In this document: positions 31,901-58,884 of the stretch, one piece after another
Layout of the letters: each line of letters starts with the position of its first letter
How positions within the stretch are numbered: position 1 is the first letter of the stretch
DNA from: Candidatus Vogelbacteria bacterium
GTDB taxonomy: Bacteria; Patescibacteriota; Minisyncoccia; Phycocordibacterales; XYD1-FULL-46-19
Assembly (NCBI GenBank): GCA_903864935.1
Contig: CAIPHT010000017.1
Span: 16,096 to 80,095, forward strand
Direction: 5' to 3'
DNA length: 64,000 bases
Position numbers and translations under genes: made by a program
The notes under the pieces: generated by a model
What the model was told of the DNA's origin: nothing
The model's input: only the letters and a program-made list of their open reading frames with translations
Databases searched by the model: none

Positions 31901-34900
31901 AAGTCAATACGAATCAACGTATAGAAAAGGGGCTATCTCTTTTGTGCGGACTGAGAGTAACGCAAACAGGGGTTATCTCTCTTTTGCCTTGGATGCCAGT
32001 AACACCGCTAGTAACGTTGACTCTGATATTATCGGTAATACAAAAATGGTCATTGACTATACTGGCTCTGTCGGGATTGGAACGACGGCCCCAGGGGCAA
32101 AGTTAGATATTGTTGGTGTAAATAATCAATTAAGAATTACTAATGCAGACGGAACTAATTATTATAGTATCGGTAGGAGTAATTCAAACGGGTATTTAGA
32201 GTTTAGTTTAACTGGTGCTAATTCTTATGGATATACATTCAATGGTGGCCTCGTCGGTATCGGTACCACTTCACCAATGGCCACCTTATCAGTAATGGGC
32301 ACTTCAACCTTGCCGGGCGTTAATCCTTTTGTCGTCGCTTCTTCATCCGGTGCTCAACTTTTGACTGTATTGCCGAGTGGTAACGTGGGAATTGGTATTT
32401 CTAATCCTGCTCAGTTACTGGATGTTGAGGGGAGAATAAGAGCTAATACCCTTGAGTTTGGCGCTAACAATAGTTATCTCGGTTATCTTGATCAGGGGGG
32501 TCTAGTCTTTAACTCTTCGGGTGTGGGGACTATCTATAATGCTTACTCTGGTTCCAACCTCTTCCTTTCTAGTAACGGAGGCAACGTGATATTGGGGATG
32601 AGAGATGACGGACTCGCTTCTTATAATGGCAAGGTGGGCATCGGCACTTCAACTCCTTTTGCCAAACTTGCCATTCAGAATTCCTTTGGTTCCACTCAGG
32701 CCTTGTTTGATATTGCGACGACCACTTCATCCGCCTTCGCCACCTCGTCGGTCTTCTATGTTGGGGCGAATGGTAATGTGGGTGTTGGTACTAACCTCCC
32801 GACAAATAAATTTACCGTCAGTGGGACAGTTGACCCTGTGCGCTTCCATAGCACCGGTCAAAATGTCTTAGAAATTTCTAGTACGGGGAATAGTGAGAAT
32901 GGTGTTAGATTCACTCGTAGCGGCGATGCCTCTTACTGGACCTTGGGGATGGATAATAATTCGACTAATGACTTTTATCTTGGCTCTAGCGGTTTTGGAA
33001 CAAAGTATCTAACTGTTTTGCAAACAAACGGCAACGTTGGTATTGGCACCACCACACCAATCTCCACTCTCTCTGTTTCCGGTACCGCGGGCATTAATCC
33101 GTTTACCATTGCTTCATCCACCGGCCAGACAATGCTAACAATGCTTCAGAATGGCAATGTGGGAATCGGTACAGCGAATCCAATTTCGCCTCTAACTATT
33201 TCTAAAAATTCTGCCACTACGGCAACTTGGTTAAATTTGGATAATACTGATGTTGGGGGCGCGGGGGTAATGTTGGATTTTACACAAGGCGGAGGGATGA
33301 TGGGACGAATAAATAGTTACTATGCTGGTAATGGGTTATGGAATCTTGGTTTGGGGACAAATGCTAACTCAGGATTGCCGGTGTTGTTTGTGACAAACGG
33401 CCGAGTGGGAGTAGCGAGCACTACGCCACAATCCACCTTCGCTGTCTCTGGTATCGCTGGCACAAATCCTTTCACTATTGCTTCTTCAACTGGCCAGACA
33501 ATGCTAACAATGCTTCAGAATGGCAACGTCGGTATTGGTACAGCGGCGCCAAGTTATCCATTGGATGTTGTCGCAAATTCAAGTGGATCAAATTTGAATC
33601 TTATAAACAACCCCAGTAATCTTTCGGGGATTAGATTTGGGGTAAATGGAACGCCTGCCTCTTCTTACACGACGATTTTCGCTGATGGCAGATCTACCGG
33701 TTATTTGTATATTAAAACTAATGATATTGAGCGATTCCGCATCGACTCAAATGGCAACGTCGGTATTGGCACGACAACCCCAAGTGATATCCTAAGTATC
33801 CAAGGTAATTCATCAATCCTTGGTAATACTCCTTCCGTTGGACTTAATAATACGGATTCTGGAGGTAGATTGTGGAGTATTTATTCTTCTGGTAACAGTA
33901 ATTCTATTGGCGGTGGTAAGTTTAGTATTTTTGATAAAACAGCCAGTTTAAATAGACTCGTTATTGATTCCTCTGGCAATGTGGGGATTGGTACTTCTAG
34001 CCCACAGTCAATTCTTCATCTCTATGGTGCGACAGTTAAGCCTCGACTCGAGCGTTCGGTTAGTTCGGGCGCGGCAGTTTTGGACTTCTGGCCATCGGGT
34101 ACTTTGAGTCAGGCTAATTCTGTTTGGAGTTTTGGTATGGTTGAGAATAATAGTAATTTCTCGGTCAATCAATGGACTGGCTCGCAAACTTTGCAGAGAC
34201 TTCTTGTTGATACGAATGGCAACGTTGGTATTGGTACGACGAGTCCTGCGGCGACTTTGGATATAGAGATAAATAATACATCAGGAGCTTCAACCATTCC
34301 TGTTTTTAGAGTAGGAAATTTGGCGGGTACTCCAGCCTACTTTGGTATTACATTGGGCGGTTCGGCGAGTGGTTGGGAAAATATCGCACAGCTCCAACTT
34401 AATGGGACTAAATACATATCTTTAGATGGTGGGCAATCCACAGTTGATTTACATAAAAATATGTTATTGGATAATAATGTATCTTTTCAGGCATCTTCCA
34501 ATGGATTTAACAACTTTGTTCCTTATAACACAGCTTTTTCAAATGGATTCTCTTTTGATACAGGCTCAATATTTAGCTTCCAGACAAATGGTAGTCCGGT
34601 TATGACAATATTAAATAATGGCAACGTCGGCATTGGCTCCACCACCCCGCTCTCCACCCTCTCAGTCTCCGGCACGGCTGGCACCAACCCATTCACAGTC
34701 GCTTCCTCCACTGGCAACGCGATGTTGACGATGCTTCAGAATGGCAATGTGGGAATCGGTACAGCGAATCCCGGGAACAAGCTTCATATTGTAGGTGGGG
34801 GTCTCTCTTTGGGTGATAGCGTTTCTGCCTTAACAACAAGGGGATTATTTAATATTCACGACTCAAGTAATGCTCGAATGAGCATTACTAAAGCAAGCGT

Positions 34901-37900
34901 TGGAGGGTTTAGATTTGATGTGACTGGGTCTGGAAGTAGCTACAGATTAAATATCGGAGATGATAATGTTGCTAATAGTGGCGATACTAATGCTTGGATG
35001 ACCTTTACTAATCTCGGCCTCGTCGGCCTCGGCACCACCACCCCTAACGCCAACCTTAATATCTTCGGTACCACCAACACCTTCATGCGGGTAGCCTCTT
35101 CAACCAATCAGAATATCTTCGTCATTGATAATAATGGCGACGTCTCCATGTCTGGTGGCTTGGCTCTCACTGGTCTCACTGGCAACATCATCACCTCAAC
35201 CAATGTTAAGCAAGCCATCCAAGACTTAGACACCAGCCTATATAATCAACAGAACAATACTAAGGAGATCACTGGTTTCCCTAACCGCACCGACACGAGC
35301 ATTGCCTTCACTAGCGGCACCCGCACCTTCACCATCACCGGCACCAACTTCAAGCTCTACTCAGTCGGCAAAGAATATACCAAGAATACCGAATCCATTG
35401 GTCTCCCTAACACTGTCGGCCTCTACTATATATACTACGACAAGACCAGCCACAACTTAGCCACCAGCACCACCGCTTGGGGTCTCACCGATGGCACCAT
35501 CCAAGTCGCCACGGTCTATTGGGATGGCACCACTGGCGTGTTGGGCGAAGAGCGTCACGGGGTCACCATGGATGGCGCCACTCATGAGTATCTCCACCAT
35601 ACTGTCGGTACCAGATACCAGTCTGGCTTAGCTGGTACCTTCAATTCCGACAGAACCTTCTCCATCACCGCTGGCGCGGTGGATGACGAAGATATCGAAG
35701 AGACAATCCCACTCACCACGACTGGTCGTATTCTCTACCACAATGGTCCAACCAACTTCACTTATACTTCGGCCACCTCCAGCTTCTTCGATGAGACTTG
35801 TACGGGCGGAGTTGTCTGTTACGACAATGCGGGCACCAAGGCGGCCGTCACAAACAACAACTATGTCGCCTATTGGATCTTCGCCACCAATGACCCGACC
35901 ACCCCAATCTACTCAATGATGGGTCAACGCCAAGACACCAGCCTCGCTAATGCTCAAGCTAATCAGACCTATGGCAGCCTCACACTTGGGACCCTCCCAT
36001 TTGCTGAGATGAAGTTACTCTATCGTGTCATTGTCAGGAACAACGCCGGCAGTACCTTGTCCGTCGATGACTATCGCTCCGTCTCTAACCTCCCATCGGG
36101 CACCTACCTCGCTACTTTGCACAGCAGTTTGACTGGTCTTACTAATGACGACCACACTCAATACGCTTTGCTCGCTGGTCGCGCTGGTGGTCAGAGTTTA
36201 ATTGGTGGCAATACCGCCGGAGACAATCTCACCTTGTTTGGCAACTCCATTGACTACGGCAATATCTTCACTCAACCTTATGGGGGGAGCTTAACGGTGG
36301 GCACCACTTCTACTATCACCCTCGCCAACACCTTATTCAATGTGGCTTCGTCTACTGGTGCCAATTACTTAACGGTGTTGAAGAATGGGAATGTTGGGAT
36401 TGGGACGAGTAGTCCAAGCACAAATTTTTACGTACAGGGCAATTCGGAGGTTACGGGGTATCTTATTGCTGGAGGGGCTTATTCCAACGCCGATACAGTT
36501 AGAATTTCTCTTGATGAATATACTGACCGAAGTAGAATTGCGACAGCTGGATATACCAACAAATATTATGCGGGAAGGGCGACCGGAGTAAATGGCGAAC
36601 ACCGTTTCTATGTTGGAGCCAATGGCTCATGGAATGAAGCACTAAGTATTCTATCTTCTGGTTCCATCGGTATTGGCACTACCACCCCTCTCGCCAAGCT
36701 TGATCTCACTGGGACCCTTGGGTCACTGGCCGATATCTTCAACGTCTCCACGAGCACGGGGGCCAACTTAGTCTCAAGTCTCTTCCGCATTACGGCCAAC
36801 GGCGATGTGTCTATTGGCGGAGCTAATCTTGGTAATTACAGCACCACCACCATCAATAATGACTTAGTGGTTGGTGGTGGCGCTCTCACTTACTCTTCAT
36901 CCACTGGCATTGTCTCAATTGATAATGTGGAGTTGGGAGCCACCTCCTTCCCAACTGATGCCGGGATGGTTAGCTGGATGGATATGCCTCTCACCTCAGG
37001 TACGGCTGCCGGTGTCGGTGTGGCTTATACTGCCAACCTCGCGGGCAACCCTATCCTTTCCATCGCTGGTATCTCTGATGGTAATGGCGACCTCTCGAGC
37101 TTTGGTGTTGGTATTGGTACCACCAGTGTGCCTGCCTTCCTTACAATCCAAAATGCTTCGACCACCAGCAATATGCCTCTGCTGCTTTTTGCTTCGTCTT
37201 CTGGATCTTCAATCCTCTCTATTTCTAATAATGGCAATATCGGGATTGGGACGAGTACCTCAGGTGGGACACTCCACGTAATTAATCCTACTGGTATAAC
37301 CTCAGCTAAGTTCCAGGCTGGCACTGGTAACACAATCACTAATTCTTTGTTAGAAATCTTACCTAATAGTGGGCTTAGTAAAATTTATTTCTCCTCTGAC
37401 AATAATGGGCAAAGAATGGTTTATCTTGATACGACGGGTTCACCAAGAATGAATATCGATAACTCGTCTATTGTCCAAGGTTCTAATCGTTTAATCAATT
37501 GGACATCTGGCGACATGAACGCCTCCGCTGATATTGGTCTTTCTCGCGGGGCCGCTGGTAAATTATATGTCGGCAATGGGGCAACCTATGACTATACCGG
37601 AGGATTAATCGCTGGGTCTGTGGGCATTGGCTCCAGCACTCCCGTGGCCAAGCTTTCCATCCATGATAATTCGGGACTCGCGGCATCTAATCCACTCTTC
37701 ACCATTGCTTCATCGAGCGCCGCGGGCACGGGCACTACCACTTTGTTGACGATACTCGGGAATGGCAACTTGGGCATTGGCACCGCTTCGCCGAATTCTC
37801 CACTTCAAATTTCTAACACTACCGCTACTACCAAATTTATTCGAGTGGGGACCAACTCCAATCCTTCCACCACAGCCAATGCTGGCGGTATAGTCGTGGA

Positions 37901-39829: not shown

Positions 39830-39842
39830 CTAGGCCTTGCCT
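39830..39842. repeat. 13-nt remnant of the REP family-2 palindrome (CTAGGCCTTGCCT) between the giant gene stop and the LamG gene
   Basis: Exact match to the core of the 42886 copy. The chance of this at this length in 64 kb is negligible. Confidence 0.6.
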
Positions 39843-39869
39843 GGACAAAACCAAGTGCTTAAAATATTT

Positions 39870-42077
39870 ATGAATAAAATTTTATTTTTTATAATCTCTA
39901 TTAGTTTAGGCTTGACCTTTTCTCTTCCCGCCTTTTCTCTGGCCGCACAAATTGATTCCGCCCCCACTCGTGGCCTTGTTGGCTACTGGTCTTTCGACGA
40001 AGGGACCTCTACTATTGCCCATGATTATTCAGGGAATAAAAATAATGGGACTTTGGTGGGAACTCCTAAACCTAGTTGGGTTGCTGGTAAAAATGGTAAA
40101 GCTTTAATTTTGAATGATGCGACGCAATATGTTGATGCGGGGACAGGTAATACGGGTGTTTATAATCCGGGTCAAACCTTTACTTTGTCTGTTTGGGTAT
40201 TACCAACTGCAACCGGTAAAGCTAGTGGAGCTGATATAATTCAAAAACAAACAGGCTCTGCTTCACCGTATGCGAGTTGGTCACTTGATTTTAGTAATAA
40301 TCAGGAATTTGGGCTTGGCTTAGGTGGGACAAATAATACATTTTATGATTTCAGGGCAAAAACGCCAGCCGTTGCACTTAATCAGTGGTACCATGTTGTG
40401 GCAACTTATGATGGCACGACGATAAAAACATATTTAAATGGGGCCCTGTCTAATTCCGAAGTTTTCCCACTGACTATTAAATACACCAGTGACAAACTTG
40501 TTTTTGGATCATGGTCTTATGGTCAGGCAACTAATTTATTTGTCGGTAAAATAGATGAAGCTCGCATCTACAACCGTGCCCTAACAGCCGGCGAAATTTC
40601 TGCCCTTTATCAAACCAGCGCCACCAAGATTAATCCAGCACCGCCGATCAATAAAGCTGGTCTTAATGCTGGACTCATTGCTTATTGGACGATGGATACT
40701 CAAGATATTAATTGGACGACGAGCCGGATGATTGATAAGTCGGGGAGTGGTAACACGGGCACACTTGGAGCCTTTACTAGTACGGCCTCGGCTCTGGGTA
40801 AATTGGGACAGACGCTCAAGTTCAATGGTACGAGCAATTATCTGGTCAATAGTCAGGTGGTTAATATCACCAAGTCCACCGTCTCGGCGTGGGTCAATTT
40901 GCCGAGCTACCCCACGAGCGGGAGCTTGGGCATGCTCGCTGGTTTTGCTCAAGGTAATAATTCTGATACTCACGACAAGGACCTCTTCATCGATGGGAGT
41001 GGTAAGGCCTATTATTACACTTACACTGGCCAACTCAAGTGCACCACTGAGCCGACCAATGCCATTCCGCGCAATTCTTGGCACTTGGTCACCGGCACTA
41101 ACGATGGTGTTAACAATTATCTTTATATTGATGGACAGCTGGCCGGTTCGGTCTCCGCCGGTAATTCGTATGCTGGCTATGGTTCGGCCAACCTGCTTGT
41201 TGGGGGCAAAGTTAATTATTCCGGCTCGGTTGGTTGTGGTACCGGCAACACCACGCGCACCTATCTCCCGGCGAATACCAAGATTGATGATGTGCGCATC
41301 TACAACCGCGCGCTCTCAGCGAGTGAAGTTAAAACTTTATATAATCAGAGCCAGGGGACAAAAGTGAATGCTCCTCCGACTCTCAAACCTCTTGGTCTCG
41401 ACTCCGGCCTTGTCGGTTATTGGACAATGAACAATCAAGACATTAATTGGAAGACGATGACGATGGTAGACAAATCCGGCAAAGGCAACACTGGCACGCT
41501 CACCAACATGCCTACCTCCACTTCCCCCGTCGCCGGCAAAATTGGTCAGGCGTTGAAGTTTAATGGGAGTAGTTACGTTGATACTAATAGTGCAAGTCTT
41601 GGTCTAACAAATAGTAGTGATCTGACCGTCTCTGTTTGGTTTAAAAGAGCCGATTCGGATGTCGGCCAGCATCATTTGGTTAGTGATTATAATAAAAATA
41701 CGCCAACGGGTTGGATGTTTATGTTCGAATCTAACTACTTATGGATAAAAAATTATCAAACGAGCGCAGTGAACGCAAGAATGTCTGCATCCGTCTCAAC
41801 CATTATTGATACGAAGTGGCATCACGCAGTCGGGATAATAAAAGGAGATGGAACAGATACAAAATTATATATAGACGGCATCCTCCAAGGGAGCAGTTTT
41901 TTTGGTGGTGCGGGAGGCATTGTGACTCAATTGAACATGGGAAGCGGGAATGTAACTATCGGGAGACAGTCCTTGCCTTCTGAAAGATTTTTCAATGGCT
42001 CTATCGACGACACCCGCATCTATAATCGCACCCTTACCCCCGCCGAAGTCCTCCAACTCTACCGCCAAGGAAAATAA
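39870..42077 (+). CDS. secreted protein with three tandem LamG / ConA-like lectin-glucanase domains
   Basis: Signal peptide MNKILFFIISISLGLTFSLPAFSLA. Three repeats each start (L)VGYW(S/T)(F/M)D and end D(E/D)xRIYNR(A/T)L(T/S)..E(I/V)..LY, the hallmark of the LamG_3 / ConA-like superfamily. The ATG at 39870 is chosen over the upstream TTG. Confidence 0.75.
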   Translation: MNKILFFIISISLGLTFSLPAFSLAAQIDSAPTRGLVGYWSFDEGTSTIAHDYSGNKNNGTLVGTPKPSWVAGKNGKALILNDATQYVDAGTGNTGVYNPGQTFTLSVWVLPTATGKASGADIIQKQTGSASPYASWSLDFSNNQEFGLGLGGTNNTFYDFRAKTPAVALNQWYHVVATYDGTTIKTYLNGALSNSEVFPLTIKYTSDKLVFGSWSYGQATNLFVGKIDEARIYNRALTAGEISALYQTSATKINPAPPINKAGLNAGLIAYWTMDTQDINWTTSRMIDKSGSGNTGTLGAFTSTASALGKLGQTLKFNGTSNYLVNSQVVNITKSTVSAWVNLPSYPTSGSLGMLAGFAQGNNSDTHDKDLFIDGSGKAYYYTYTGQLKCTTEPTNAIPRNSWHLVTGTNDGVNNYLYIDGQLAGSVSAGNSYAGYGSANLLVGGKVNYSGSVGCGTGNTTRTYLPANTKIDDVRIYNRALSASEVKTLYNQSQGTKVNAPPTLKPLGLDSGLVGYWTMNNQDINWKTMTMVDKSGKGNTGTLTNMPTSTSPVAGKIGQALKFNGSSYVDTNSASLGLTNSSDLTVSVWFKRADSDVGQHHLVSDYNKNTPTGWMFMFESNYLWIKNYQTSAVNARMSASVSTIIDTKWHHAVGIIKGDGTDTKLYIDGILQGSSFFGGAGGIVTQLNMGSGNVTIGRQSLPSERFFNGSIDDTRIYNRTLTPAEVLQLYRQGK

Positions 42078-42096
42078 TTACCGCCAAGGCAAAAAT
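42059..42096. repeat. 19-bp tandem direct duplication (ctaccgccaaggaaaataa / ttaccgccaaggcaaaaat) spanning the LamG gene stop codon
   Basis: 17 of 19 positions identical, immediately adjacent. Confidence 0.7.
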
Positions 42097-42120
42097 TTCA
42101 CCGAGGTAGTTTTTTGCCCA

Positions 42121-42149
42121 ATCACCGCTAGGCATTGCCTAGCGGTGAT
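42121..42149. repeat. REP-like palindrome, family 2, copy a: core CCGCTAGGC-ATT-GCCTAGCGG, extended to 14-bp arms (ATCACCGCTAGGCA/TGCCTAGCGGTGAT)
   Basis: Perfect inverted repeat read directly. Confidence 0.9.
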
Positions 42150-42195
42150 TATACGTTGCAAACAAAGGCTAAATTTATCCACATTTTTCCATTTT

Positions 42196-42216
42196 CCGCT
42201 AGGCATTGCCTAGCGG
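42196..42216. repeat. REP-like palindrome, family 2, copy b, followed by TATAAT and the transposase ATG
   Basis: ccgctaggcattgcctagcgg, then tataat (42217-42222), then ATG at 42223. Confidence 0.9.
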
Positions 42217-42222
42217 TATAAT

Positions 42223-42903
42223 ATGTTTATGTCGGAAAGGAAATTTATTTTTTCGATCGGTGAATTTTATCACATCTATAATCGTGGAGTAGAGAAGCGC
42301 GTTATCTTTAACACGGTCGCAGACAAATATCGTTTCTTGAAGTTGCTTTATTTGTGTAATGGAGGAGAGCCTTTTAAGTTCGATGAACTAAAGAGAGGTG
42401 AGGAATATCTATTCAGACGGGGCGAACCGATTGTTGATATATGCGCCTATTGTTTAATGGACAATCACTATCATCTTATCCTGAGAGAAATTAAGGAGGG
42501 CGGGATCAGTATTTTTATGCACCGGCTTGGGACTTCTTACTCAGCCTATTTTAATAAATTGAATGAACGCAAAGGGTCATTATTCCAAGATAAATTTGGG
42601 GCCAGACATTTTGATAGTGATGAATATTTGAAATATGGGATTGCTTATAATCATCTTAATCCGGTGAAAATGGTTGAGCCCAAGTGGAAGGAGGAGGGCA
42701 TTAAAGATATGGATAAGGTAAAAAAATTTATCGAGAAATATCGCTTTTCTAGTTATCTTGATTATAAGGGCCAAAAACGGAACGAAAATCGCATTTTGAA
42801 TATGGATTCTTTGCCCGAGTATTTTGATAATGCCAAGGAGTTTGACGATTACTTAACTGATTGGCTAGGTTATCATGCGGAAGAACCGCTAGGCCTTGCC
42901 TAG
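42223..42903 (+). CDS. HuH-family tyrosine transposase of the IS200/REP-associated (RAYT-like) type, copy 2
   Basis: IGEFYHIYNRGVEKR. HuH motif MDNHYHLIL. RKGSLFQDKF. YGIAYNHLNPVK, comparable to the Y..NPVK motif of REP-associated Y1 transposases. FSSY. The stop codon TAG lies inside REP2 copy c. Confidence 0.8.
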   Translation: MFMSERKFIFSIGEFYHIYNRGVEKRVIFNTVADKYRFLKLLYLCNGGEPFKFDELKRGEEYLFRRGEPIVDICAYCLMDNHYHLILREIKEGGISIFMHRLGTSYSAYFNKLNERKGSLFQDKFGARHFDSDEYLKYGIAYNHLNPVKMVEPKWKEEGIKDMDKVKKFIEKYRFSSYLDYKGQKRNENRILNMDSLPEYFDNAKEFDDYLTDWLGYHAEEPLGLA

Positions 42904-42906
42904 CGG
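42886..42906. repeat. REP-like palindrome, family 2, copy c (loop variant CTT), overlapping the transposase stop
   Basis: ccgctaggccttgcctagcgg. Confidence 0.9.
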
Positions 42907-42957
42907 TAATTTAATGTCGATAAATAAGGCTTAAATAGCCACTGCTTTTGGAGTTTT

Positions 42958-42984
42958 CCCTAGGCATTGCCTAGCGGTTTTTTT
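42958..42984 (+). terminator. REP family 2, copy d (5' arm degenerate: CCCTAGGCATTGCCTAGCGG) plus T7; acts structurally as a hairpin and U-tract terminator
   Basis: Hairpin followed by ttttttt. Confidence 0.6.
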
Positions 42985-43040
42985 GCTTGAGAGACGAATT
43001 ATGTTAGGATATATGAGACCATATGTCAGAAATGGTATAT

Positions 43041-43114
43041 GGGCCTATAGTTCAATGGTAGAACAATGGTCTCCAAAACCATCGATCGAGGTTCGAGTCC
43101 TCGTGGGCCCGCCA
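43041..43114 (+). tRNA. tRNA-Trp (anticodon CCA), CCA end encoded
   Basis: GGGCCTA-TA-GTTC-AATGGTA-GAAC-A-ATGGT-CTCCAAA-ACCAT-CGAT-CGAGG-TTCGAGT-CCTCG-TGGGCCC-G-CCA. Cloverleaf folded by hand. Confidence 0.85.
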
Positions 43115-43171
43115 GAAACAGGATTTAAGAAGGTTTGCTTATTTTTTGCCATCGTTTATAATAGGCTTAAT

Positions 43172-43291
43172 ATGATAGAACAACCACAAGAAAACAAAGG
43201 CGAAATTGTCCCTCAAGATTTTGTTGAGGAGGTAATGAGAGCCTATAACCAAGCACTAGAATCATTAGCAAATAATCCTGATGGTTCTTAG
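43172..43291 (+). CDS. small acidic hypothetical protein (39 aa), low confidence
   Basis: ATG after the TATAAT at 43156-43161. The upstream part of track ORF 42983..43291 overlaps tRNA-Trp and is rejected. Confidence 0.25.
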   Translation: MIEQPQENKGEIVPQDFVEEVMRAYNQALESLANNPDGS

Positions 43292-43295
43292 TTTT

Positions 43296-43490
43296 ATGTC
43301 AGACGAATTAAAAGTTAAAGCTCAAAAATTAGGTCAATTATTAGCCAATTCCAACAAGATCGATTTAGACCAGAAGATGAAAGTTCTGGGTCTTCTCAAG
43401 GATCTTACGGAGGGCAAAATTGATGAGATAATTACTTATCTCGAAGAGAAGGAAGGTTCGGGCAGTCTTGAGTTAATTCTTGCCATCTAA
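43296..43490 (+). CDS. small amphipathic hypothetical protein (64 aa); 3' end overlaps the convergent miaA
   Basis: MSDELKVKAQKLGQLLANSN... with K/L heptad-like periodicity. No family recognised. Confidence 0.3.
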   Translation: MSDELKVKAQKLGQLLANSNKIDLDQKMKVLGLLKDLTEGKIDEIITYLEEKEGSGSLELILAI

Positions 43491-44394
43491 TTCTCTTGTC
43501 CCGTTTAAACCAGGTTAGCTGGCGTTTACTGTATTTTACTATCTCTCGATAAAGTTGCTCGATCATCTCCTGTTTGGTAATTTTTCCGCCAGCTGGCGGA
43601 TGCAAAAAGCGTGACACATGGCGATATTCTAAACCTAAATTCTCAAGGCGCTTCCACGACACACCATTCTGGTGTATTTTTTTTACCTCAGCCACCATCC
43701 CACTCTTAATTCTCTCAACTAGGCGTTTATAGATTTTTTTGTTTAATTTTTCTTGGTCAATTTTAATACCGATAATTTCAAAATCATATTGTGAATTGCG
43801 AAGTCCAACTTCGGGCTCTCTTGAAGTTGGACTTCTCAATTCAGGCACCTTGCCCAATTTTTTGGCAATTTCAATCGCTCGAATTAATCTAACCGGATTT
43901 TGGCTATCAATAGTCTTGGCTCGCGCTGAGTCTAGTTTTTTAAGCATAGCAAAAAGTTGAGCGGGAGTTTTTTTGCTTAGCTCAGACCGAAGTTTTTTGT
44001 TCGGCTCAACCTCAGGCAAAACAAGGTTGTCAACGACCGCCTGAATATAGAAGCCGGTACCGCCGACAATAATCGGTGTCTTGCCTCGAGCGATAATTTC
44101 TTTGATTTTCTTATCAGCCAGCTTTTTGAAATCCGAGACGGTAAAAACTTTTTTGGGGCTTATCACATCAAGCAAGTGGTGGGGGATGCCGGCCATCTCC
44201 TTCTTGGTGACTTTGCCACTGCCTATATCTAAGCCCTTATAGACTTGTCTGGAGTCAGCGCTAATAATCTCACCCCCTACCTTCTTCGCCAGTTTGATAG
44301 AATAGGCGGTCTTACCACTAGCCGTCGGTCCGACGATAACGTAGATTTGAGGCCTATTCTTGGGTGTTTTTACTGGATTGATTTTCTCTCTCAT
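43432..44394 (-). CDS. miaA: tRNA dimethylallyltransferase
   Basis: P-loop GPTASGKT. The conserved segments SADSRQVYKGLDIGS..K, HHLLD and VGGTGFY..A are those of MiaA. Confidence 0.9.
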   Translation of the reverse strand: MREKINPVKTPKNRPQIYVIVGPTASGKTAYSIKLAKKVGGEIISADSRQVYKGLDIGSGKVTKKEMAGIPHHLLDVISPKKVFTVSDFKKLADKKIKEIIARGKTPIIVGGTGFYIQAVVDNLVLPEVEPNKKLRSELSKKTPAQLFAMLKKLDSARAKTIDSQNPVRLIRAIEIAKKLGKVPELRSPTSREPEVGLRNSQYDFEIIGIKIDQEKLNKKIYKRLVERIKSGMVAEVKKIHQNGVSWKRLENLGLEYRHVSRFLHPPAGGKITKQEMIEQLYREIVKYSKRQLTWFKRDKRIRWQELTQDCPNLPSLRDK

Positions 44395-52714: not shown

Positions 52715-53575
52715 ATGGCCCTATCTAAAGCCGAAATTTTACAAGCTAGTCGGGAGCGTGACCGGCATAAGCGGCAGGGAGCCGTTTTTATAGGAGTGGG
52801 TCTTATTATTCTTATTGTTGGTGTCTTTTTGATTCTCCTCAACCTTTCTTTTTTGCGGGTTAACAATGTGAAGATTATTGGCCAAACTAGCGCCGACCCA
52901 GATACGATCAAAGAGTTCGTGAATAAACAATTGACCGGACGGTATCTCGGTCTTGTCCCCAAGAGTAGTATTTTCTTTGTCACTAAGAGTGTTCTCGTTA
53001 ATGGGGTTTCGCGAGAATTCCCTGGCTTGGCTAAGGTGAGTATTACTTGGCCTGACCTCAACACTTTGGCTATTCTCATTGTTGATCGTGAGTCTAAAGT
53101 GCTCTGGTGTGTGGATGGTGAGAAAGATAAGAGTTGTTATTACTTATCACCTGAGGGGCTGGCTTATCAAGAAGCGCCAAGTTTCTCCGACGCCCTTTTT
53201 ATTGAACTGCATACTAAGCAACCTTTGAAAAAAATAGGGGAGAAGGTGATTGATCCAAAAACTTTAATCAGAACGACAGCCTTTCTTAATTTTATGAAGA
53301 GCTCAATGACCTTATGGCCTAAGTCGGGATTACTTTTGTCGCGCGCCGAGGTTTATTCGCAAAATGATTTTATTGCTTTTCTCTTCGACCCTGCTAATCC
53401 CGCTTGGCAAGCGCAAGTTCTCTTTAATGTTGATCGTGGGGCCAATAACTTGATTACCGACTTCCACTCCGTCCTTAAGAACGACAAATTCCAGTCCGAT
53501 TGGAAGGCGGGCAACGGCGGGCTCAATTATCTTGACCTCCGCTTCCCTGGGAAGGTTTTTTACAGGTTCCGCTAA
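52715..53575 (+). CDS. ftsQ: FtsQ/DivIB-like cell division protein with a TM helix and a POTRA domain
   Basis: Short cytoplasmic N-terminus, TM (AVFIGVGLIILIVGVFLILL), then a POTRA-like pattern VNNVKIIGQT....I........G....V.......L......V..V.I.WPDLNTLAILIVDRE. Confidence 0.5.
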   Translation: MALSKAEILQASRERDRHKRQGAVFIGVGLIILIVGVFLILLNLSFLRVNNVKIIGQTSADPDTIKEFVNKQLTGRYLGLVPKSSIFFVTKSVLVNGVSREFPGLAKVSITWPDLNTLAILIVDRESKVLWCVDGEKDKSCYYLSPEGLAYQEAPSFSDALFIELHTKQPLKKIGEKVIDPKTLIRTTAFLNFMKSSMTLWPKSGLLLSRAEVYSQNDFIAFLFDPANPAWQAQVLFNVDRGANNLITDFHSVLKNDKFQSDWKAGNGGLNYLDLRFPGKVFYRFR

Positions 53576-53590: not shown

Positions 53591-53680
53591 CAAAATTACT
53601 AAGCCTCGCTTAACTGCCGGGCTACAAATGAGGGGATTTTTGACATTGACAGGGAGGTATTGTTAGTGCTATAATTAAAG
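53591..53680 (+). promoter_or_regulatory. Promoter module copy 1: conserved 45-nt upstream block, then TTGACA, an 18-nt spacer and TGcTATAAT
   Basis: caaaattactaagcctcgcttaactgccgggctacaaatgagggg...ttgacagggaggtattgttagtgctataat. About 88 percent identical by eye to copy 2 at 54531-54623. Confidence 0.65.
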
Positions 53681-53739
53681 TAGAAAGAATAAACGGCTAC
53701 TGGCAAAGCCAGCAAGCTTTTGAAAAGGAAGGAGCTGCT

Positions 53740-54357
53740 ATGAAGGATCCTCTTACCATTCTCTTTGTTGAGGATGGCGATGGACACTTTGCTGACCTGC
53801 AGCAGATGCTGGCCATCGAGATTCCTCGCTTGCCGATCCGGGTCAACGCGCTTTTTGCTCGCACCCAAGTCGAAGCCGAGGCCCTGCTAAATCAGGCTGA
53901 TGCCGTGATGACCGATGTTTTCTTTCCCGCCGAAGTCGGAGACAAAGAAGCCGGTAACGGTCTGGCAATTGTCGCGCTCTGCTTGGAGAAGAAAAAACCC
54001 GTGGTTTGGATCACAAGCACCTATCATCATGGGACGAAGACTGACCCTCTCAACGAATGGGGGTGTAAACACGGCCTCAAGATGTTCGACTCCTGCACTC
54101 CGGACTCAACTAGTGAGAACGATACAGAGGGCGATCATAAGCCGTGGAAGTCAGCCCTTTTGGGACTCTTCTATGTGATTGTGGCTGTCGAAAGCGGGGC
54201 GGCGATCTTCAAGGATGGCTGCATTATTCAGAGCCGTAACGGTCATGGCCTTCATCACTGCATGTACGATATACATTACTATTGCAGTGGGGAAGGAGAC
54301 CTCTCTCGGGAGCCGGTTCTGATCAAGATGAAGGAAGAGGGGTTCCCCCTCGACTGA
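53740..54357 (+). CDS. stand-alone CheY-like receiver-domain protein with an additional C-terminal region of unknown function (GC-rich, SD-led)
   Basis: AAGGAG RBS. ILFVEDGDG..L.., then a hydrophobic beta-strand followed by the Asp of AVMTDVFFP (candidate phospho-acceptor). The conserved Thr is in VVWITST. Confidence 0.5.
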   Translation: MKDPLTILFVEDGDGHFADLQQMLAIEIPRLPIRVNALFARTQVEAEALLNQADAVMTDVFFPAEVGDKEAGNGLAIVALCLEKKKPVVWITSTYHHGTKTDPLNEWGCKHGLKMFDSCTPDSTSENDTEGDHKPWKSALLGLFYVIVAVESGAAIFKDGCIIQSRNGHGLHHCMYDIHYYCSGEGDLSREPVLIKMKEEGFPLD

Positions 54358-54530
54358 ACTCTTTCCACAATACTTTCCGCCCGCAGTGCCGCCTGGCTCT
54401 GTCGGGCGGTTTCTGTTTATCTCAATTATATGTGAAGCCCCGAGTGCTTCACATCATCCGACCGTGCCCGCCAAAGCTTTAGTGTCAGCGGCGGTTGTTT
54501 TACTGAACGAGCCCTCGCTTGAATCCCCAG

Positions 54531-54623
54531 CTCAAAATTACTAAGCTTCGCTTAACTGCAGGGCTACAAATAAGGTGATTTCTGGTCTTGACAGAGAGGG
54601 GTCATTGGTGCTATAATTAAAAG
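54531..54623 (+). promoter_or_regulatory. Promoter module copy 2 (TTGACA, 18-nt spacer, TGcTATAAT) upstream of the small gene at 54675
   Basis: ctcaaaattactaagcttcgcttaactgcagggctacaaataaggtgatttctggtcttgacagagaggggtcattggtgctataat. Confidence 0.65.
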
Positions 54624-54674
54624 AGAGTAACTTTGTATCGTCTAGTGCTTCTAAACTTGAGACAGGAGGTCTAT

Positions 54675-54872
54675 ATGGACAAGATTTACGAGGACAATGA
54701 CTTGATTGTAAGTGTTGATTCAGACCTTGGGGTTGTTGTTGAGTTGAAATCTCGCGACAATGTCGGTGTCAGGATTGACCCCACCCTGGGGTCCTTGGTT
54801 GTCCAGGTGAGAGCTGGGTCGGAGATGGTTGTCTCCGGGAAGGGGATGACGGAAATCCGAGCCTTGACATAG
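54675..54872 (+). CDS. small hypothetical protein (65 aa), GC-rich, AGGAGG RBS
   Basis: MDKIYEDNDLIVSVDSDLGVVVELKSRDNVGVRIDPTLGSLVVQVRAGSEMVVSGKGMTEIRALT. Followed by a strong terminator. Confidence 0.45.
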   Translation: MDKIYEDNDLIVSVDSDLGVVVELKSRDNVGVRIDPTLGSLVVQVRAGSEMVVSGKGMTEIRALT

Positions 54873-54883
54873 AAGACTTTTTG

Positions 54884-54940
54884 TCACCGCCGGACGACCA
54901 GCGAGAAATCGCTGGCTCGTCTGGCGGTTTTTCGTTTTTA
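54884..54940 (+). terminator. long imperfect hairpin (about 19 bp: caccgccggacgaccagcga-gaaa-tcgctggctcgtctggcggt) plus a T-run
   Basis: read directly. Confidence 0.7.
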
Positions 54941-54988
54941 TACACAGTCTGGTCGGGCAAAGTCGTGAATTTGTAGTATAATTAAATC

Positions 54989-55384
54989 ATGCGCTTTCTA
55001 GCGATTATTGTTAACTATATCATCTGGCATTATACGCGGGCGATTTTGGAATTCAGTCATATTTATAAAAATATTCTATCTTTTCTTTTTAATTTCTTTT
55101 CGATCCCGATTCTTATTCGTTCTTATTTTGCCCCGTGGCGTCGCATGGGTGAAGATTATACCAAGAATATTGTCACGGACTTGGAGGATGTGGCCTCGGT
55201 CTTTGTGGTGAACACCATTATGCGTTTGGTGGGTATGGTAATGCGCACGATAATTATTGTCTTGGGGCTTCTCTTTATTGCTTTGGTTGCCTTGTTTTAT
55301 CCCATCTTACTTTTTATCTGGCTGATTATGCCCTTGATTTTAATTTTCCTAGTAACGCTCGGGGTTGGCCTAATTATCAATTAA
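54989..55384 (+). CDS. small polytopic membrane protein, hypothetical
   Basis: 131 aa with at least 3 hydrophobic helices. Overlaps the next gene by 4 nt, so it is probably co-transcribed. Confidence 0.55.
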   Translation: MRFLAIIVNYIIWHYTRAILEFSHIYKNILSFLFNFFSIPILIRSYFAPWRRMGEDYTKNIVTDLEDVASVFVVNTIMRLVGMVMRTIIIVLGLLFIALVALFYPILLFIWLIMPLILIFLVTLGVGLIIN

Positions 55385-55387
55385 GAT

Positions 55388-57838
55388 ATGGATATTAAAC
55401 AAATTTTAAAAAGTAGTCCGCTTTATCCTGTCCTTGTTGTGGAATCTATTTTGTCTTCGCGTTGGCGAACCTTCATTATCAAGCTTAGCAGTATATTATT
55501 GCTCTTATTGTTTGCTCTCGCCACCTTCTTTTCCTTTGCCAATCCGGAGTTGGTCTTGGTGGCGCCTCGGGTTTGGGGCTTGGTTTGTCTCGCCCTTGCC
55601 TTTTATATTATGGCGAAGATGACGGAGTGGCACTTCAACTCCTCTTATTATTTTGATAATGTGGCGCTCAATCGCTATAAGCCCGGCGATCTCTTTACCT
55701 TCACCGTGGGGCGAGTTCTTATGTCGACCAAAGGGGGAGATGTCCTTGCGGGCTTCATGACTTCTTCGGTTGGACACCATATTCTCTCACGTTGTGGTAT
55801 CTCAAGCAGTGACATTAAGAAATTTCTTGAATTGCGACCGGTGGGACAATTCTATAAATTGCCGATTAATTCTGATCGAGTTTTGAAATTGCGCGAGCTT
55901 GGCACCTTTCTCTTCGAAAATGACAAAAGTTTTTCACAATTTCTCGCTGAGCACGGTATCAACCAAGAAAAATTAATCGGAGCGCTCAATTGGGTGGTCT
56001 ATGAGATTGAGTTCGGCGAATATCGCAAGCGTTGGTGGAGTGAGACCAATCTGGCTAAATTGCCTGGCATCGCCAAGGATTGGGGCTTTGGCAACACTGG
56101 TACGCTCGATCAATACAGCTGGGATTTAATTTATGGGCTCGAGTTCTCATCTGACCTCTACGAATATTCTTCGCGTCTAGACGAAATCAGCCAGATTGAA
56201 ACAATTTTATCGAAACAAAAAGAGGCCAACGTCTTTATTGTGGCCGATACTTCGGGGGAGCGAATGGACGCCGTCTGGCATGTTGTTCGACAAATTAAAG
56301 ACGGTACGGCTTCGCCCGCCCTCGAGCACAAGCGTCCCGTTCTCTTCAATTCGGCCGTCTTCCTCTCTCGTTTCAAAAATAAGTCTGACCTGGAGACCGA
56401 GTTGCTAAAAATTTTTAGAGAGGTTAGCTCGGCCGGCAATGTTATTTTAATTTTTGACAATTTCTCAGCTTTTCTTCGTGGTTTCGAAGCTCTGCAATCT
56501 AATTTGCTCGAATTGCTTTACTCTTTTCTTAATTCTAACGCCGTTCAGGTCGTCGGTCTTACTAGTAATGATGACTTCCATCGTGACCTCGAGAATAATT
56601 CTACCTTGATGACCCTCTTTGATCGGGTTTTTATTCGTCCACTTCCGGTCGAATCAATTATCCATAATCTAGAGCAAACAGTTTGGTCAATTGAGGCGCG
56701 CTATAAATTATTCTTTACTTATCCGGCCCTCTTGGCCATTGTCACAGGGGCGGACAAATATTTTGCCGTTAGTGACTCGGGCGATAAGGCAGTAGATCTC
56801 TTGACGGAGATTATCCCTTGGGCGACAGGTCGAGGTTATAAGGTTATTGGCGAGGACGAGGTCAATGAGTTATTGCAGAGCAAATCAGGAATTCCGGTTG
56901 GCAAAATTAACGAAGCCGAGAAAGAGAATTTAATGTTGTTAGAGAAAAATCTTGCCAAGCGAGTTGTGGGGCAAAGTGAGGCGATTAATCAAGTTAGCAA
57001 TGCTCTTCGTCGAGCTCGCTCGGGCATACGCAACGACAAGAAGCCGATTGGCTCTTTCTTGTTCCTTGGCCCGACTGGTGTGGGTAAGACTGAGACAGCC
57101 AAGGCTCTCGCCGAAATTATGTTTGGTAATGAGAAGATGTTGCTTCGCCTCGATATGGCTGAATTCCAGACCCCTGAAGGGGCCGACACCCTTATTGGTT
57201 CGGCGGCCGATGGCAAACCGGGGGTCTTAGCTAATCTGGTGCGCGAACATTCTTACGGCGTCTTATTGCTTGATGAGTTCGAGAAGGCTCACGCGGACGT
57301 CCACGATTTGTTTCTCACTATTTTTGACGAGGGTTATTTTTCTGACAAGAGTGGCCGACAAGTAAGTTTGCGCAATATGATTATCATTGCCACTTCTAAT
57401 GCTGGAGCCGATACTATCTGGGAAAGTCTCAAGGCTGGCAAAAAGCCAGAGACAGACGTCTTGATTAATGATCTGGTCGAGCGAGCCATCTTCAAGCCCG
57501 AATTATTGAATCGTTTTGACGCGGTCGTGATTTATCATCCTCTGGCCGAAGTTGAGCTTAATCAAATTTCTCGACTAATGCTTGGTCGCTTGGCTTCGCG
57601 TTTGGCTAACCAAGGTGTCACTCTGATGATTAGCGATTATTTAGTGCAAGTGGTGGCCAAGCTTGGGGCCAACGAGGTCTTTGGGGCTCGCCCAATGCAA
57701 CGTTTTATCCAAGATAAGATTGAACAACAAATTGCCGATAGCCTTATCCGTGGAGATGTGGCGAGTGGTGGGATTATCGCTTTCGAACCGCAAACTGAGA
57801 CACATGAACCAATTCTGATTGTCAAAAATTTAAAATGA
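55388..57838 (+). CDS. Membrane-anchored Clp/Hsp100-like AAA+ ATPase with an N-terminal TM region, a degenerate D1-like module with no Walker A, and an intact ClpB-type D2 module with no IGF loop.
   Basis: TM helices in the first 100 aa. The middle region keeps ...GNVILIFDNFSAFLRG (compare ILFIDEIH of D1), but the position of GEAGTGKT reads VFIVADTSGERMD. The C-terminal 330 aa contain VVGQSEAINQVSNALRRARSG, Walker A GPTGVGKTETAKALA, Walker B LLLDEFEKAH, sensor IIIATSNAG and a D2-small domain. Confidence 0.8.
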   Translation: MDIKQILKSSPLYPVLVVESILSSRWRTFIIKLSSILLLLLFALATFFSFANPELVLVAPRVWGLVCLALAFYIMAKMTEWHFNSSYYFDNVALNRYKPGDLFTFTVGRVLMSTKGGDVLAGFMTSSVGHHILSRCGISSSDIKKFLELRPVGQFYKLPINSDRVLKLRELGTFLFENDKSFSQFLAEHGINQEKLIGALNWVVYEIEFGEYRKRWWSETNLAKLPGIAKDWGFGNTGTLDQYSWDLIYGLEFSSDLYEYSSRLDEISQIETILSKQKEANVFIVADTSGERMDAVWHVVRQIKDGTASPALEHKRPVLFNSAVFLSRFKNKSDLETELLKIFREVSSAGNVILIFDNFSAFLRGFEALQSNLLELLYSFLNSNAVQVVGLTSNDDFHRDLENNSTLMTLFDRVFIRPLPVESIIHNLEQTVWSIEARYKLFFTYPALLAIVTGADKYFAVSDSGDKAVDLLTEIIPWATGRGYKVIGEDEVNELLQSKSGIPVGKINEAEKENLMLLEKNLAKRVVGQSEAINQVSNALRRARSGIRNDKKPIGSFLFLGPTGVGKTETAKALAEIMFGNEKMLLRLDMAEFQTPEGADTLIGSAADGKPGVLANLVREHSYGVLLLDEFEKAHADVHDLFLTIFDEGYFSDKSGRQVSLRNMIIIATSNAGADTIWESLKAGKKPETDVLINDLVERAIFKPELLNRFDAVVIYHPLAEVELNQISRLMLGRLASRLANQGVTLMISDYLVQVVAKLGANEVFGARPMQRFIQDKIEQQIADSLIRGDVASGGIIAFEPQTETHEPILIVKNLK

Positions 57839-58884
57839 TTAAAGTTAGGAATTTTTTAATTAGGAATCATCACATTCGTTGGGGAGTTGTTGGCCTTATT
57901 TTTTTGGCGATCATTTTTGTTTTTTGTTTTGCCACTTGGGCTGTAATGAAGATTACTTATTATACTCTCTGGCGTGAGCACTCTATATCGTATCAGTCAC
58001 AAGATTTGGCTAATAGTACCGATATTGAACAGACCATCTCCTCCTATCTTCTTGATAAGCCAGTGACCAATTTGCCTTTGTCAGCAGGGGCCTTCTTAGT
58101 TAGTGACCTTACTTCTAAAGAGACAGTCGTGGGACGTAATGAGGACCAAGTTTTACCCATCGCTTCGGTGACCAAACTTATTACCGCTTCGGTGGCTGAA
58201 CAATTATTAAGACCCGACCAGCCCGTCGTTGTCACCAAGGAGGCGTGGCAAACCTATGGCAATACCGGCCAGCTCAGTGTGGGAGAGAAGTTGCCACTTA
58301 AGATTATTCTCTACCCTTTGCTCCTAACTTCGAGCAATGATGCGGCTGAGGCGATTGCCACTGCTTATGGTCGAGATAAGTTTATTAGCAAGATGAATGA
58401 GTTTGCCAAGAGTATTGGGATGACCCATACCCACTTCGATGACCCGAGTGGTTTGTCGGCTGATAATCTCTCAACGCCTAACGACTTGTCTAAATTGGCG
58501 AGCTATTTGTATGAGAAAAAACCGGAGCTCCTGGCCATTACCAGAGAGACCTCTTACCACTTCGGTCGCCATACTTGGACCAACTATAATAATGTCTCTC
58601 TGATGAAGTATTATATCGGGGGCAAGAATGGTTATACCACTGAGGCCAATCGCACTCTTGTCTCACTCTTCGAGGTGCCAATCAACAGTTCGTCATCAGC
58701 CAATTCTAAGGTGACAGTAAAGAAGAACCGTCTCTTGGCCGTCGTCTTGCTCCAAAGTGATGACAAAAAGAAGGATGCTCGCAATTTAATAAATTATTTG
58801 GCTCGCTACGCCTCCTTCAATAATGGCAAGAACGGCTTCGTGCCGATTAACCCCCCGTCAGTTAGCGGATTGCCTAAAACCTAA
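57835..58884 (+). CDS. dacA: D-alanyl-D-alanine carboxypeptidase (penicillin-binding protein, S11 family), membrane-anchored
   Basis: SxxK (ASVTK), SxN (SSND) and K(T/N)G (KNGYT) active-site triads with appropriate spacing. N-terminal TM. Confidence 0.7.
   Translation: MIKVRNFLIRNHHIRWGVVGLIFLAIIFVFCFATWAVMKITYYTLWREHSISYQSQDLANSTDIEQTISSYLLDKPVTNLPLSAGAFLVSDLTSKETVVGRNEDQVLPIASVTKLITASVAEQLLRPDQPVVVTKEAWQTYGNTGQLSVGEKLPLKIILYPLLLTSSNDAAEAIATAYGRDKFISKMNEFAKSIGMTHTHFDDPSGLSADNLSTPNDLSKLASYLYEKKPELLAITRETSYHFGRHTWTNYNNVSLMKYYIGGKNGYTTEANRTLVSLFEVPINSSSSANSKVTVKKNRLLAVVLLQSDDKKKDARNLINYLARYASFNNGKNGFVPINPPSVSGLPKT

Follow-up and report, generated by a model that had tools for sequence, protein, structure and literature searches.

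Gene organization of the locus

The locus described here lies in a 64,000-nt stretch of DNA (hereafter called the window) from Candidatus Vogelbacteria bacterium (GCA_903864935.1, contig CAIPHT010000017.1, positions 16,096–80,095 of the forward strand). It contains a gene for a ClpB-derived AAA+ ATPase of 816 aa that carries a membrane anchor, together with a gene for a small membrane protein on its 5' side and a gene for a serine peptidase of the S11 (penicillin-binding) type on its 3' side. A gene for an FtsQ/DivIB-like protein is located further upstream. The four genes are listed below, with the basis of each assignment in parentheses.

52715–53575, + strand: FtsQ/DivIB-like bitopic membrane protein, 286 aa (homology to the genes flanking the module in relatives)
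54989–55384, + strand: small helical membrane protein, 131 aa (open reading frame; homologs in relatives)
55388–57838, + strand: membrane-anchored ClpB-derived AAA+ ATPase, 816 aa (Pfam, NCBIfam, PDB sequence search, AlphaFold2 (AF2) model, Foldseek, and family searches)
57835–58884, + strand: membrane-anchored S11 penicillin-binding-type serine peptidase, 349 aa (Pfam Peptidase_S11)

The open reading frame (ORF) of the ATPase is uninterrupted over all 816 codons. An earlier note on this DNA had described overlaps at both ends of the gene. At the 5' end, the junction reads TAA-gat-ATG, i.e. the stop codon of the 131-aa gene and the start codon of the ATPase gene are separated by a 3-nt spacer, and the proposed 4-nt overlap occurs only in relatives (loci L005, L021, and L023). 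At the 3' end, the overlap is present: an ATGA sequence joins the ATPase stop codon to the start codon of the S11 gene, by which the S11 gene is predicted to be translationally coupled to the ATPase gene. The ATPase gene is very probably co-expressed with its neighbours.

No recognisable Shine-Dalgarno sequence was found before any of the three genes (54977–54991, 55370–55390, and 57820–57837). A TATAAT sequence is present at 54977–54982, 6 nt 5' of the ATG start codon of the small gene; it lacks an acceptable -35 element and is absent from the promoter-scan output, and, if used, it would imply a leaderless transcript. Searches of the whole window with Rfam (gathering thresholds) and ARAGORN identified four tRNAs only, and no RNA gene in the gap at 54357–54989.

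Domain structure of the ATPase

Only two Pfam domains were detected in the 816-aa protein, both with scores exceeding the Pfam cut-offs: AAA_2 (PF07724) at residues 552–712 (E = 1.9e-39) and ClpB_D2-small (PF10431) at residues 719–797 (E = 1.6e-18). The protein is far under the cut-offs of all Clp equivalogs in NCBIfam, including those for ClpB (TIGR03346, 348 vs 1232 bits) and ClpA (302 vs 993 bits). ClpB was the best match in both NCBIfam and the PDB sequence search, the good match to TIGR03346 being limited to the second ATPase tier (D2). In the phmmer search against PDB, residues 487–801 matched ClpB D2 with 255 bits, and residues 243–475 matched the first tier (D1) of ClpB (residues 164–397) with merely 41 bits, while ClpA aligned to residues 273–802 in one stretch over D1 and D2 with no M-domain gap. 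The AF2 model of the protein (mean pLDDT 82), which was built from 37 family sequences, comprises a membrane hairpin, a helical domain, a low-confidence linker, and two alpha/beta tiers. When this model was used as a Foldseek query, the top matches were ClpC chains, with ClpB chains also found (E of approximately 1e-45 to 1e-42), and the alignment spanned at least approximately 590 columns of the two-tier ClpC and ClpB chains. The predicted fold and the D2 domains place the protein in the class-1, double-tier Clp/Hsp100 superfamily. The following parts were distinguished.

55466–55627, + strand: N-terminal transmembrane hairpin, aa 27–80 (translation, hydrophobicity scan, and AF2)
55685–56026, + strand: helical N-domain, aa 100–213 (AF2 helices 105–213)
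56027–56173, + strand: family-specific linker with R215-W216-W217, aa 214–262 (family alignment and AF2)
56174–56833, + strand: predicted pseudo-ATPase D1 tier, aa 263–482 (ClpB alignment, family alignments and logos, translation, and AF2)
56846–57778, + strand: D2 tier, predicted to be ATPase-competent, with the D2-small domain, aa 487–797 (Pfam, ClpB D2 alignment, and conservation)
57197–57223, + strand: shortened D2 pore loop GSAADGKPG (alignments and translation)

The transmembrane helices that the earlier note had placed at the start of the protein were recovered by two methods. A Kyte-Doolittle scan identified two N-terminal hydrophobic segments (26–59 and 53–76), and the AF2 model contains helices at 24–51 and 59–93 with a very short outer loop between them. 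Because the N-terminus forms a hairpin with such a short outer loop, both ends of the ATPase are expected to be cytoplasmic. The helical N-domain that follows has no Pfam match to Clp_N (PF02861), even at E ≤ 10. Its hhalign comparison with canonical Clp N-termini gave a weak match (probability 37%, pairwise E of 3.6e-4) in the register of the Clp_N repeats, and the domain is possibly a diverged Clp_N repeat domain. In the linker, the R215-W216-W217 (RWW) motif is at least 85% conserved among 161 family members, and AF2 confidence is low at residues 219–232 and 251–260. The M-domain has no counterpart in the ATPase: residues 475 and 487 of the query match ClpB residues 397 and 531 in the phmmer alignment, so that approximately 130 residues are gone, and no long coiled coil is present between D1 and D2 in the AF2 model. 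Since the M-domain is missing, Hsp70 coupling of the ClpB type is not expected.

D1 keeps the alpha/beta AAA fold in the AF2 model (residues 264–482) and has no Pfam match of its own. The claim that the D1 P-loop is lost proved correct, and the loss is family-wide. The Walker A motif GEPGVGKT is replaced by ADTSGERM (nt 56243–56266), the DE of Walker B has become DN within GNVILIFDNF, the two arginine fingers (RR) are replaced by L-F, and the pore loop KYRG is replaced by FKNKS, in which the tyrosine is gone. Column statistics over the 161 members revealed that the catalytic positions of D1 are degenerate, and the D1 pore-loop position is occupied by E, D, or N across the family. The D1-small domain joins D2 directly, as in ClpA. 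On the basis of these alignments, D1 is predicted to be a pseudo-ATPase scaffold in which every catalytic motif has been lost.

D2 contains an intact Walker A motif (GPTGVGKT, nt 57068–57091) and also keeps Walker B (LLLDEFEKA), sensor-1 (TSN), the NRFD arginine finger, and sensor-2 (GARP). Across 37 sequences, no variation occurs at K567/T568, D629/E630, N671, R709, and R768, and all of these except T568 pass an 85% conservation filter in the 161-member alignment; over the segment G561–T568 and at D629, E630, N671, R709, and R768, positions are invariant or at least 85% conserved. D2 is thus the only tier predicted to be competent to hydrolyse ATP. The earlier description of D2 as complete holds for these catalytic motifs but not for the pore loop. 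The motif of pore loop 1, GYVG, has been deleted: a canonical segment of 13 residues is replaced by GSAADGKPG, a 4-residue deletion, and the remaining loop contains no aromatic and no bulky hydrophobic residue. In the 161 members, the D2 loop falls short of the canonical one by 4 residues or more, and its single semi-conserved position is Phe in 50% of them.

As the earlier note had stated, there is no ClpP-docking tripeptide of the IGF/LGF type in the segment after sensor-1, which has no loop insertion relative to ClpB; three incidental matches to the tripeptide were found in 151 family members. A Pfam match to Peptidase_M41 is likewise absent from the ATPase, the architecture of which is of the Clp type.

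Distribution and phylogenetic position of the family

The homolog search yielded approximately 40 proteins of 807–830 aa with the same architecture as the query, which are divided from ordinary Clp proteins by a score gap from 628 to 285 bits. All named relatives are from metagenome-assembled genomes of Patescibacteria or Paceibacterota, and their database labels are solely 'AAA family ATPase' or 'ClpC' (the latter from JGI). A profile of the N-terminal 486 positions (transmembrane hairpin, N-domain, and pseudo-D1) was then searched against 1.84 billion cluster representatives and matched 1,782 clusters (50% identity) at E ≤ 1e-30. The best 150 of these 1,782 matches are approximately 800–830 aa in length and were aligned from residue ~1. 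Among the 126 full-length representatives in this set, a single P-loop is present in 124, the G[YF][VIL]G motif is absent from 122, and N-terminal hydrophobic segments number at least one in all 126 and at least two in 122. Residues R27, D118, G129, R135, G137, W202, and R215-W216-W217 are specifically conserved in the family (161 members). More than 120 representatives that diverge from one another thus share the same features, and the traits of the ATPase are family-wide rather than the result of decay or artefact. No description of this family was found in the searchable literature. These data indicate that the ATPase belongs to a large, uncharacterised, Patescibacteria-specific family, which is found mainly in the Paceibacteria/Parcubacteria lineage.

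A distant subgroup (P0052/P0056; locus L006, 6001–8445, and locus L024, 6345–8840) shares 25% identity with the query when the two are aligned over their full length. Its members keep the D1 P-loop in the form GQEGTGKT or GPEGTGKT and are already without the Walker B glutamate and GYVG. The P-loop of this subgroup suggests a stepwise loss of D1 function, and the subgroup may stand at an earlier point in the decay of D1.

In a neighbour-joining tree of D2 sequences (limited sampling, midpoint rooting), the family, including the distant subgroup, forms one clade with a bootstrap value of 98/100, and this clade falls outside the sampled ClpB/C-like, ClpA, and ClpV sequences. Placement within ordinary soluble ClpC, which according to the earlier note would have refuted its reading, is contradicted by this tree. 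The D2 of the ATPase was also compared with that of the ClpB encoded in the same window, with which it shares 39% identity.

14126–16804, + strand: canonical ClpB, 892 aa (Clp_N twice, AAA, AAA_lid_9, AAA_2, and ClpB_D2-small)

This protein retains both P-loops and an intact GYVG and scores 1193 bits with TIGR03346, just below the cut-off of 1232. Because an ordinary ClpB is also encoded in the same genome, the 816-aa ATPase appears to be an additional, specialised paralog with a separate job. The clpB gene is preceded by genes for a Fe/Mn superoxide dismutase (12577–13230) and a trypsin-like peptidase (13269–14051).

The small membrane protein as a conserved partner

Gene organization was compared among 22 distinct loci, i.e. 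the window and loci collected from the ATPase homologs, a GTDB scan, and homologs of the small protein; the GTDB scan, which was based on a 5-sequence alignment and was pattern-limited, yielded 12 loci. A homolog of the small protein is encoded directly upstream of the ATPase gene in all 22 loci, including the two loci of the distant subgroup. In most of them the two genes are separated by 0–5 nt or overlap by 1 or 4 nt. When the comparison was started from the small protein, the ATPase gene was found directly downstream in four of four cases.

The small-protein family consists of 353 homologs, all of approximately 125–135 aa, all annotated as 'hypothetical', all from Patescibacteria, and none with a Pfam domain. 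The copy in the window has no Pfam match, also at E ≤ 10, and no NCBIfam match. No variation was seen across 50 sequences at ten positions (W13, S38, L42, P49, N75, R79, G82, R86, W111, and P115). The AF2 model (pLDDT 93) contains helices at residues 2–36, 39–44, and 65–130, and a Foldseek search of PDB with this model gave nothing at E ≤ 0.001. The small protein is an obligate genomic partner of the ATPase, and the conserved core of the locus is the pair of small protein and ATPase, not the ATPase and the peptidase.

FtsQ-like and S11 genes in the neighbourhood

A gene for an FtsQ-like bitopic protein of 265–303 aa flanks the pair on either side in 17 of the 19 assessable loci. These copies are homologous to the product of 52715–53575 in the window, as judged by hmmsearch (E of 1e-44 to 1e-130) and by alignment. 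In loci L004, L019, and L022, the gene is located directly downstream of the ATPase gene, with stop and start codons overlapping or abutting; because the gene has switched side in these loci, its linkage appears to have survived rearrangement. The FtsQ-like protein of the window has one N-terminal transmembrane helix (residues ~19–52) and no Pfam match, and its homologs in L004 and L005 have weak matches to POTRA_1 (E of 0.0017 and 0.015; 19 and 16 bits, respectively, with a cut-off of 23).

The S11 gene is located directly 3' of the ATPase gene in 12 of the 21 assessable loci, its start codon overlapping the ATPase stop codon in several of them, and is absent in the other nine. The coupling of the ATPase to a peptidoglycan enzyme, put forward in the earlier note, is therefore supported only in part; the small gene, by comparison, is present in all 22 loci. 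The S11 protein of the window has one N-terminal transmembrane helix and matches Peptidase_S11 (PF00768) with E = 1.3e-35 and 123 bits (cut-off 27.6). Its motifs are SVTK, SSN, and, as the third, KNG rather than the canonical KTG; this KNG is conserved in the relatives. The best NCBIfam match was PRK11669, a model for DD-endopeptidases of the penicillin-binding protein 7 (PBP7) type, with 89 bits, which is below the cut-off, and the DacA, DacD, and PbpG equivalogs were all under their cut-offs. The protein had been described as a PBP5-like D-Ala-D-Ala carboxypeptidase; it is a membrane-anchored S11 protein as stated, but no PBP5 C-terminal domain was detected in it and its best model is of the PBP7 type. 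The protein is predicted to be either a DD-carboxypeptidase or a DD-endopeptidase. Relatives often carry S11 as a fusion with a YkuD L,D-transpeptidase domain (approximately 470–480 aa), or have a second S11 gene in tandem; S11 relatives beside the module were seen in L002 (8465–9880), L007 (3901–5352), L010, L012, and L014.

The loci share a block of housekeeping genes, topA-dprA-serS ... dus-dnaX, with dus at 58905 in the window. The surroundings of the distant subgroup are different: L006 and L024 contain tmk, folD, purF, purD, and groES/EL, not the serS-ftsQ block. Giant adhesins, which the earlier note had put forward as possible substrates, were rejected as clients, no giant gene being located beside the module in the 21 other loci.

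In the window only, the FtsQ-like gene and the small gene are set apart by an insert of approximately 1.4 kb (53600–54990); in relatives, 15–60 nt lie between them. The insert contains two perfect TTGACA-18-TATAAT promoters of the sigma-70 type with a TG extension (53646–53675 and 54588–54617), each of which precedes an orphan ORF: one of 205 aa at 53740–54357 and one of 65–79 aa at 54633–54872. The 205-aa ORF has no Pfam match, and its N-terminus looks receiver-like (ILFVEDGD). Terminator-like hairpins are present at 54388–54410 and at approximately 54903–54931, the latter recognised by eye and absent from the terminator-scan output.

Comparison with known systems

The ATPase shares with ClpB/Hsp104 the two-tier AAA+ fold, a D2 followed by ClpB_D2-small, and the lack of a ClpP-docking loop. 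It differs from them in having a transmembrane hairpin and a dead D1, in lacking a recognisable Clp_N, an M-domain, and both pore-loop tyrosines, and in being paired with a small membrane protein. With ClpA it shares the direct succession of D1 and D2 without an M-domain gap, and ClpC provided the best Foldseek matches; unlike ClpA and ClpC, however, it has a transmembrane anchor, a dead D1, no IGF/LGF loop, and no pore-loop tyrosines.

The AAA+ proteins Pex1/Pex6, Msp1/ATAD1, and FtsH form rings at the membrane with the entry face toward the bilayer, and Pex1/Pex6 combines an inactive D1 and an active D2 with a small membrane anchor protein. All of them are members of the classical AAA clade, with aromatic pore loops that are functional, and none is of the Clp/Hsp100 type; FtsH, in addition, has a single AAA tier followed by a C-terminal M41 zinc protease domain, and the ATPase has neither. 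The resemblance of Pex1/Pex6, Msp1, and FtsH to the ATPase is confined to membrane geometry. A functional parallel might be sought in FtsEX, in which a cytoplasmic ATPase and an integral membrane component are genetically tied to the divisome and control extracytoplasmic peptidoglycan enzymes (Escherichia coli, Bacillus subtilis, Streptococcus pneumoniae, and Mycobacterium tuberculosis). FtsE is an ABC-type ATPase with a different fold and different partners, and the parallel is drawn from gene neighbourhood only.

A further comparison is with the Torsins of the eukaryotic endoplasmic reticulum and nuclear envelope, which are Clp/Hsp100-related and membrane-associated, have no aromatic pore loops, and are thought to act differently from other members with the aid of membrane cofactors (PMC5425593). 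Like Torsin with LAP1/LULL1, the ATPase is related to Clp/Hsp100 D2, has an N-terminal hydrophobic membrane segment and no aromatic pore loops, and has a membrane-spanning partner (PMC5425593). Torsin, however, has a single AAA tier, obtains its arginine finger from the cofactor, and resides in the lumen of the endoplasmic reticulum, whereas the ATPase, with a pseudo-D1 tier and an arginine finger of its own (R709), must reside in the cytoplasm. The 55 PDB matches of the ATPase at E ≤ 0.001 included no Torsin chain. The resemblance is one of analogy, not of membership.

Proposed function and alternative explanations

Clp/Hsp100 motors are threading machines, for which tyrosine pore loops are held to be essential. 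In the present family, these loops have been lost throughout while the nucleotide site of D2 has been kept, and for this reason an ATP-driven switch or remodeller is favoured over a processive unfoldase. We tentatively propose, with a probability that we place slightly short of even, that the small protein and the ATPase constitute a dedicated two-protein membrane AAA+ machine that switches membrane proteins of cell division or the cell wall without threading them; the mechanism is inferred. A stoichiometric membrane complex of the two products is suggested by how tightly their genes are coupled. If a Clp-type ring forms, the membrane-anchored N-terminus should turn its N-domain/D1 face, through which substrates enter ordinary Clp rings, toward the bilayer. 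ATP hydrolysis by D2 would power conformational changes instead of processive threading, and these changes might be relayed via the N-domain, the RWW linker, the transmembrane hairpin, and the small protein to clients or partners embedded in the membrane. From the neighbouring genes, the clients or effectors are likely to be envelope proteins, probably the bitopic ones encoded nearby, i.e. the FtsQ-like protein and, in many lineages, the S11/YkuD enzymes acting on peptidoglycan cross-links. The machine may thereby assemble, release, or switch divisome or cell-wall enzymes from the cytoplasmic side. A more specific form of this proposal draws on analogy with Torsin: the family would be a bacterial counterpart that has abandoned threading and, together with the small partner, uses ATP hydrolysis by D2 as a transmembrane switch over divisome assembly (through the FtsQ-like protein) and over the editing of peptidoglycan cross-links by S11/YkuD enzymes, filling an FtsEX-type role in these reduced genomes. 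We regard this extended version as speculative and rather unlikely to be right in full.

Several observations weigh against the two-protein switch. The FtsQ assignment depends on POTRA matches that are below threshold, and adjacency to S11 is seen in only ~57% of the loci. Since the housekeeping block is conserved, part of the linkage to the FtsQ-like and S11 genes could be inherited gene order, and in the distant subgroup (L006 and L024) the pair is kept without an FtsQ-like or an S11 gene. Finally, the Phe in the shortened D2 loop of half the family could conceivably leave some gripping of substrate.

This last point bears on a second explanation, close to the proposal in the earlier note that the protein might unfold or extract envelope proteins, in which a hexamer acts as a dislocase or unfoldase, in the manner of Msp1/ATAD1, Pex1/Pex6, or a protease-less FtsH, and pulls envelope or mis-inserted membrane proteins out of the bilayer through its pore by means of non-canonical loops, with the small protein as adaptor or anchor. 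The N-terminal anchor, which would set the D1/entry face against the membrane, is as expected for such a machine, as are the D2 ring predicted to be active, with arginine finger and sensor-2, and the Phe found in half the family, and Pex1/Pex6 provides a precedent for a tethered type II AAA+ protein with a dead D1 and a live D2. The proposal is weakened, however, by the absence of pore-loop tyrosines from both tiers throughout the family: GYVG is deleted and the D2 loop shortened across the family, the query loop offers neither an aromatic nor a bulky hydrophobic residue, and the D1 position carries E, D, or N. Processive unfolding by Clp/Hsp100 proteins depends critically on aromatic pore loops, which are conserved among them (PMC5425593), and the ATPase has neither a protease nor a ClpP-docking loop. 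We consider a dislocase somewhat unlikely. The pair could also be a membrane AAA+ system with no relation to division or the wall, serving secretion, pilus biogenesis, lipid or membrane remodelling, or other regulation, its neighbours reflecting inherited order. The synteny of topA, dprA, serS, dus, and dnaX across loci, the solitary pairs of L006 and L024 beside tmk and groES/EL, and the nine of 21 loci in which S11 is missing are all compatible with this view. It accounts poorly for an FtsQ-like gene that stays adjacent after switching side (L004, L019, and L022), for S11 start codons that overlap the ATPase stop codon in several loci, and for the fact that all four products are membrane proteins, and we judge it unlikely, marginally more so than a dislocase.

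Two further explanations have very little left in their favour. That the protein is a protease-coupled unfoldase, i.e. an ordinary ClpC or ClpA that works with ClpP and has a mis-called N-terminus, might be supposed from the name 'ClpC' given to relatives by JGI and from the ClpC structures at the top of the Foldseek matches. It is very improbable and effectively refuted, in view of the missing IGF/LGF-type loop, the NCBIfam scores far below the cut-offs of the ClpB and ClpA equivalogs, a transmembrane region whose conservation starts at residue 1 in the 150 best representatives, and a D2 tree in which the family falls within neither the ClpA nor the ClpB/C clade as sampled. Still less credible is a decaying or non-functional paralog, or an artefact such as a frameshift masking a normal D1, for which the degenerate D1 motifs could be cited; family-wide conservation refutes it. 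The ORF is continuous, the dead D1 and the rest of the architecture recur in the 1,782 clusters, R27, W202, and the RWW motif are conserved along with the catalytic residues of D2, and the D1 P-loop kept by the distant subgroup implies an ordered evolutionary loss, not random decay. The suggestion of the earlier note that a degenerate paralog might be kept for a structural role was rejected on similar grounds, the catalytic residues of D2 being near-invariant in 161 members.

In Patescibacteria, the cell biology of which has hardly been explored, the pair described here is apparently a core, unannotated component encoded beside division and cell-wall genes. The D2 ATPase site of the family has been kept under selection; the D1 engine, the Hsp70-coupling M-domain, the ClpP loop, and the tyrosines of the pore loops have been dropped, and a membrane anchor has been acquired along with a small membrane protein as obligate partner. 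The current labels, 'ClpC' and 'AAA family ATPase', are misleading. A Clp-type ring that does not thread would offer a tractable prokaryotic case for studying what such a ring does instead, a question shared with the eukaryotic Torsins.

Other features of the window

Two giant ORFs, presumably the 'giant adhesins' of the earlier note, are present on the + strand at 15–12128 (4037 aa) and 25983–39824 (4613 aa). The former begins at the first start codon past the left edge of the window and may extend upstream. In other genomes, neither shows synteny with the Clp-like module. The gene at 19054–20385 (+ strand) encodes a Big_6 protein with a weak match to dockerin_1, just below the Pfam cut-off; a few kb away, the product of 22863–24341 (+ strand) has a cohesin domain that exceeds its Pfam cut-off, and the two could form a cohesin-dockerin pair for surface assembly. 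A lectin-like protein of 746 aa with a Laminin_G_3 domain is encoded at 39837–42077. GC content is low in two stretches: 24001–26000 (0.374), close to where the second giant ORF starts, and 42001–44000 (0.393), close to the tRNA-Trp gene; the window average is ~0.46.

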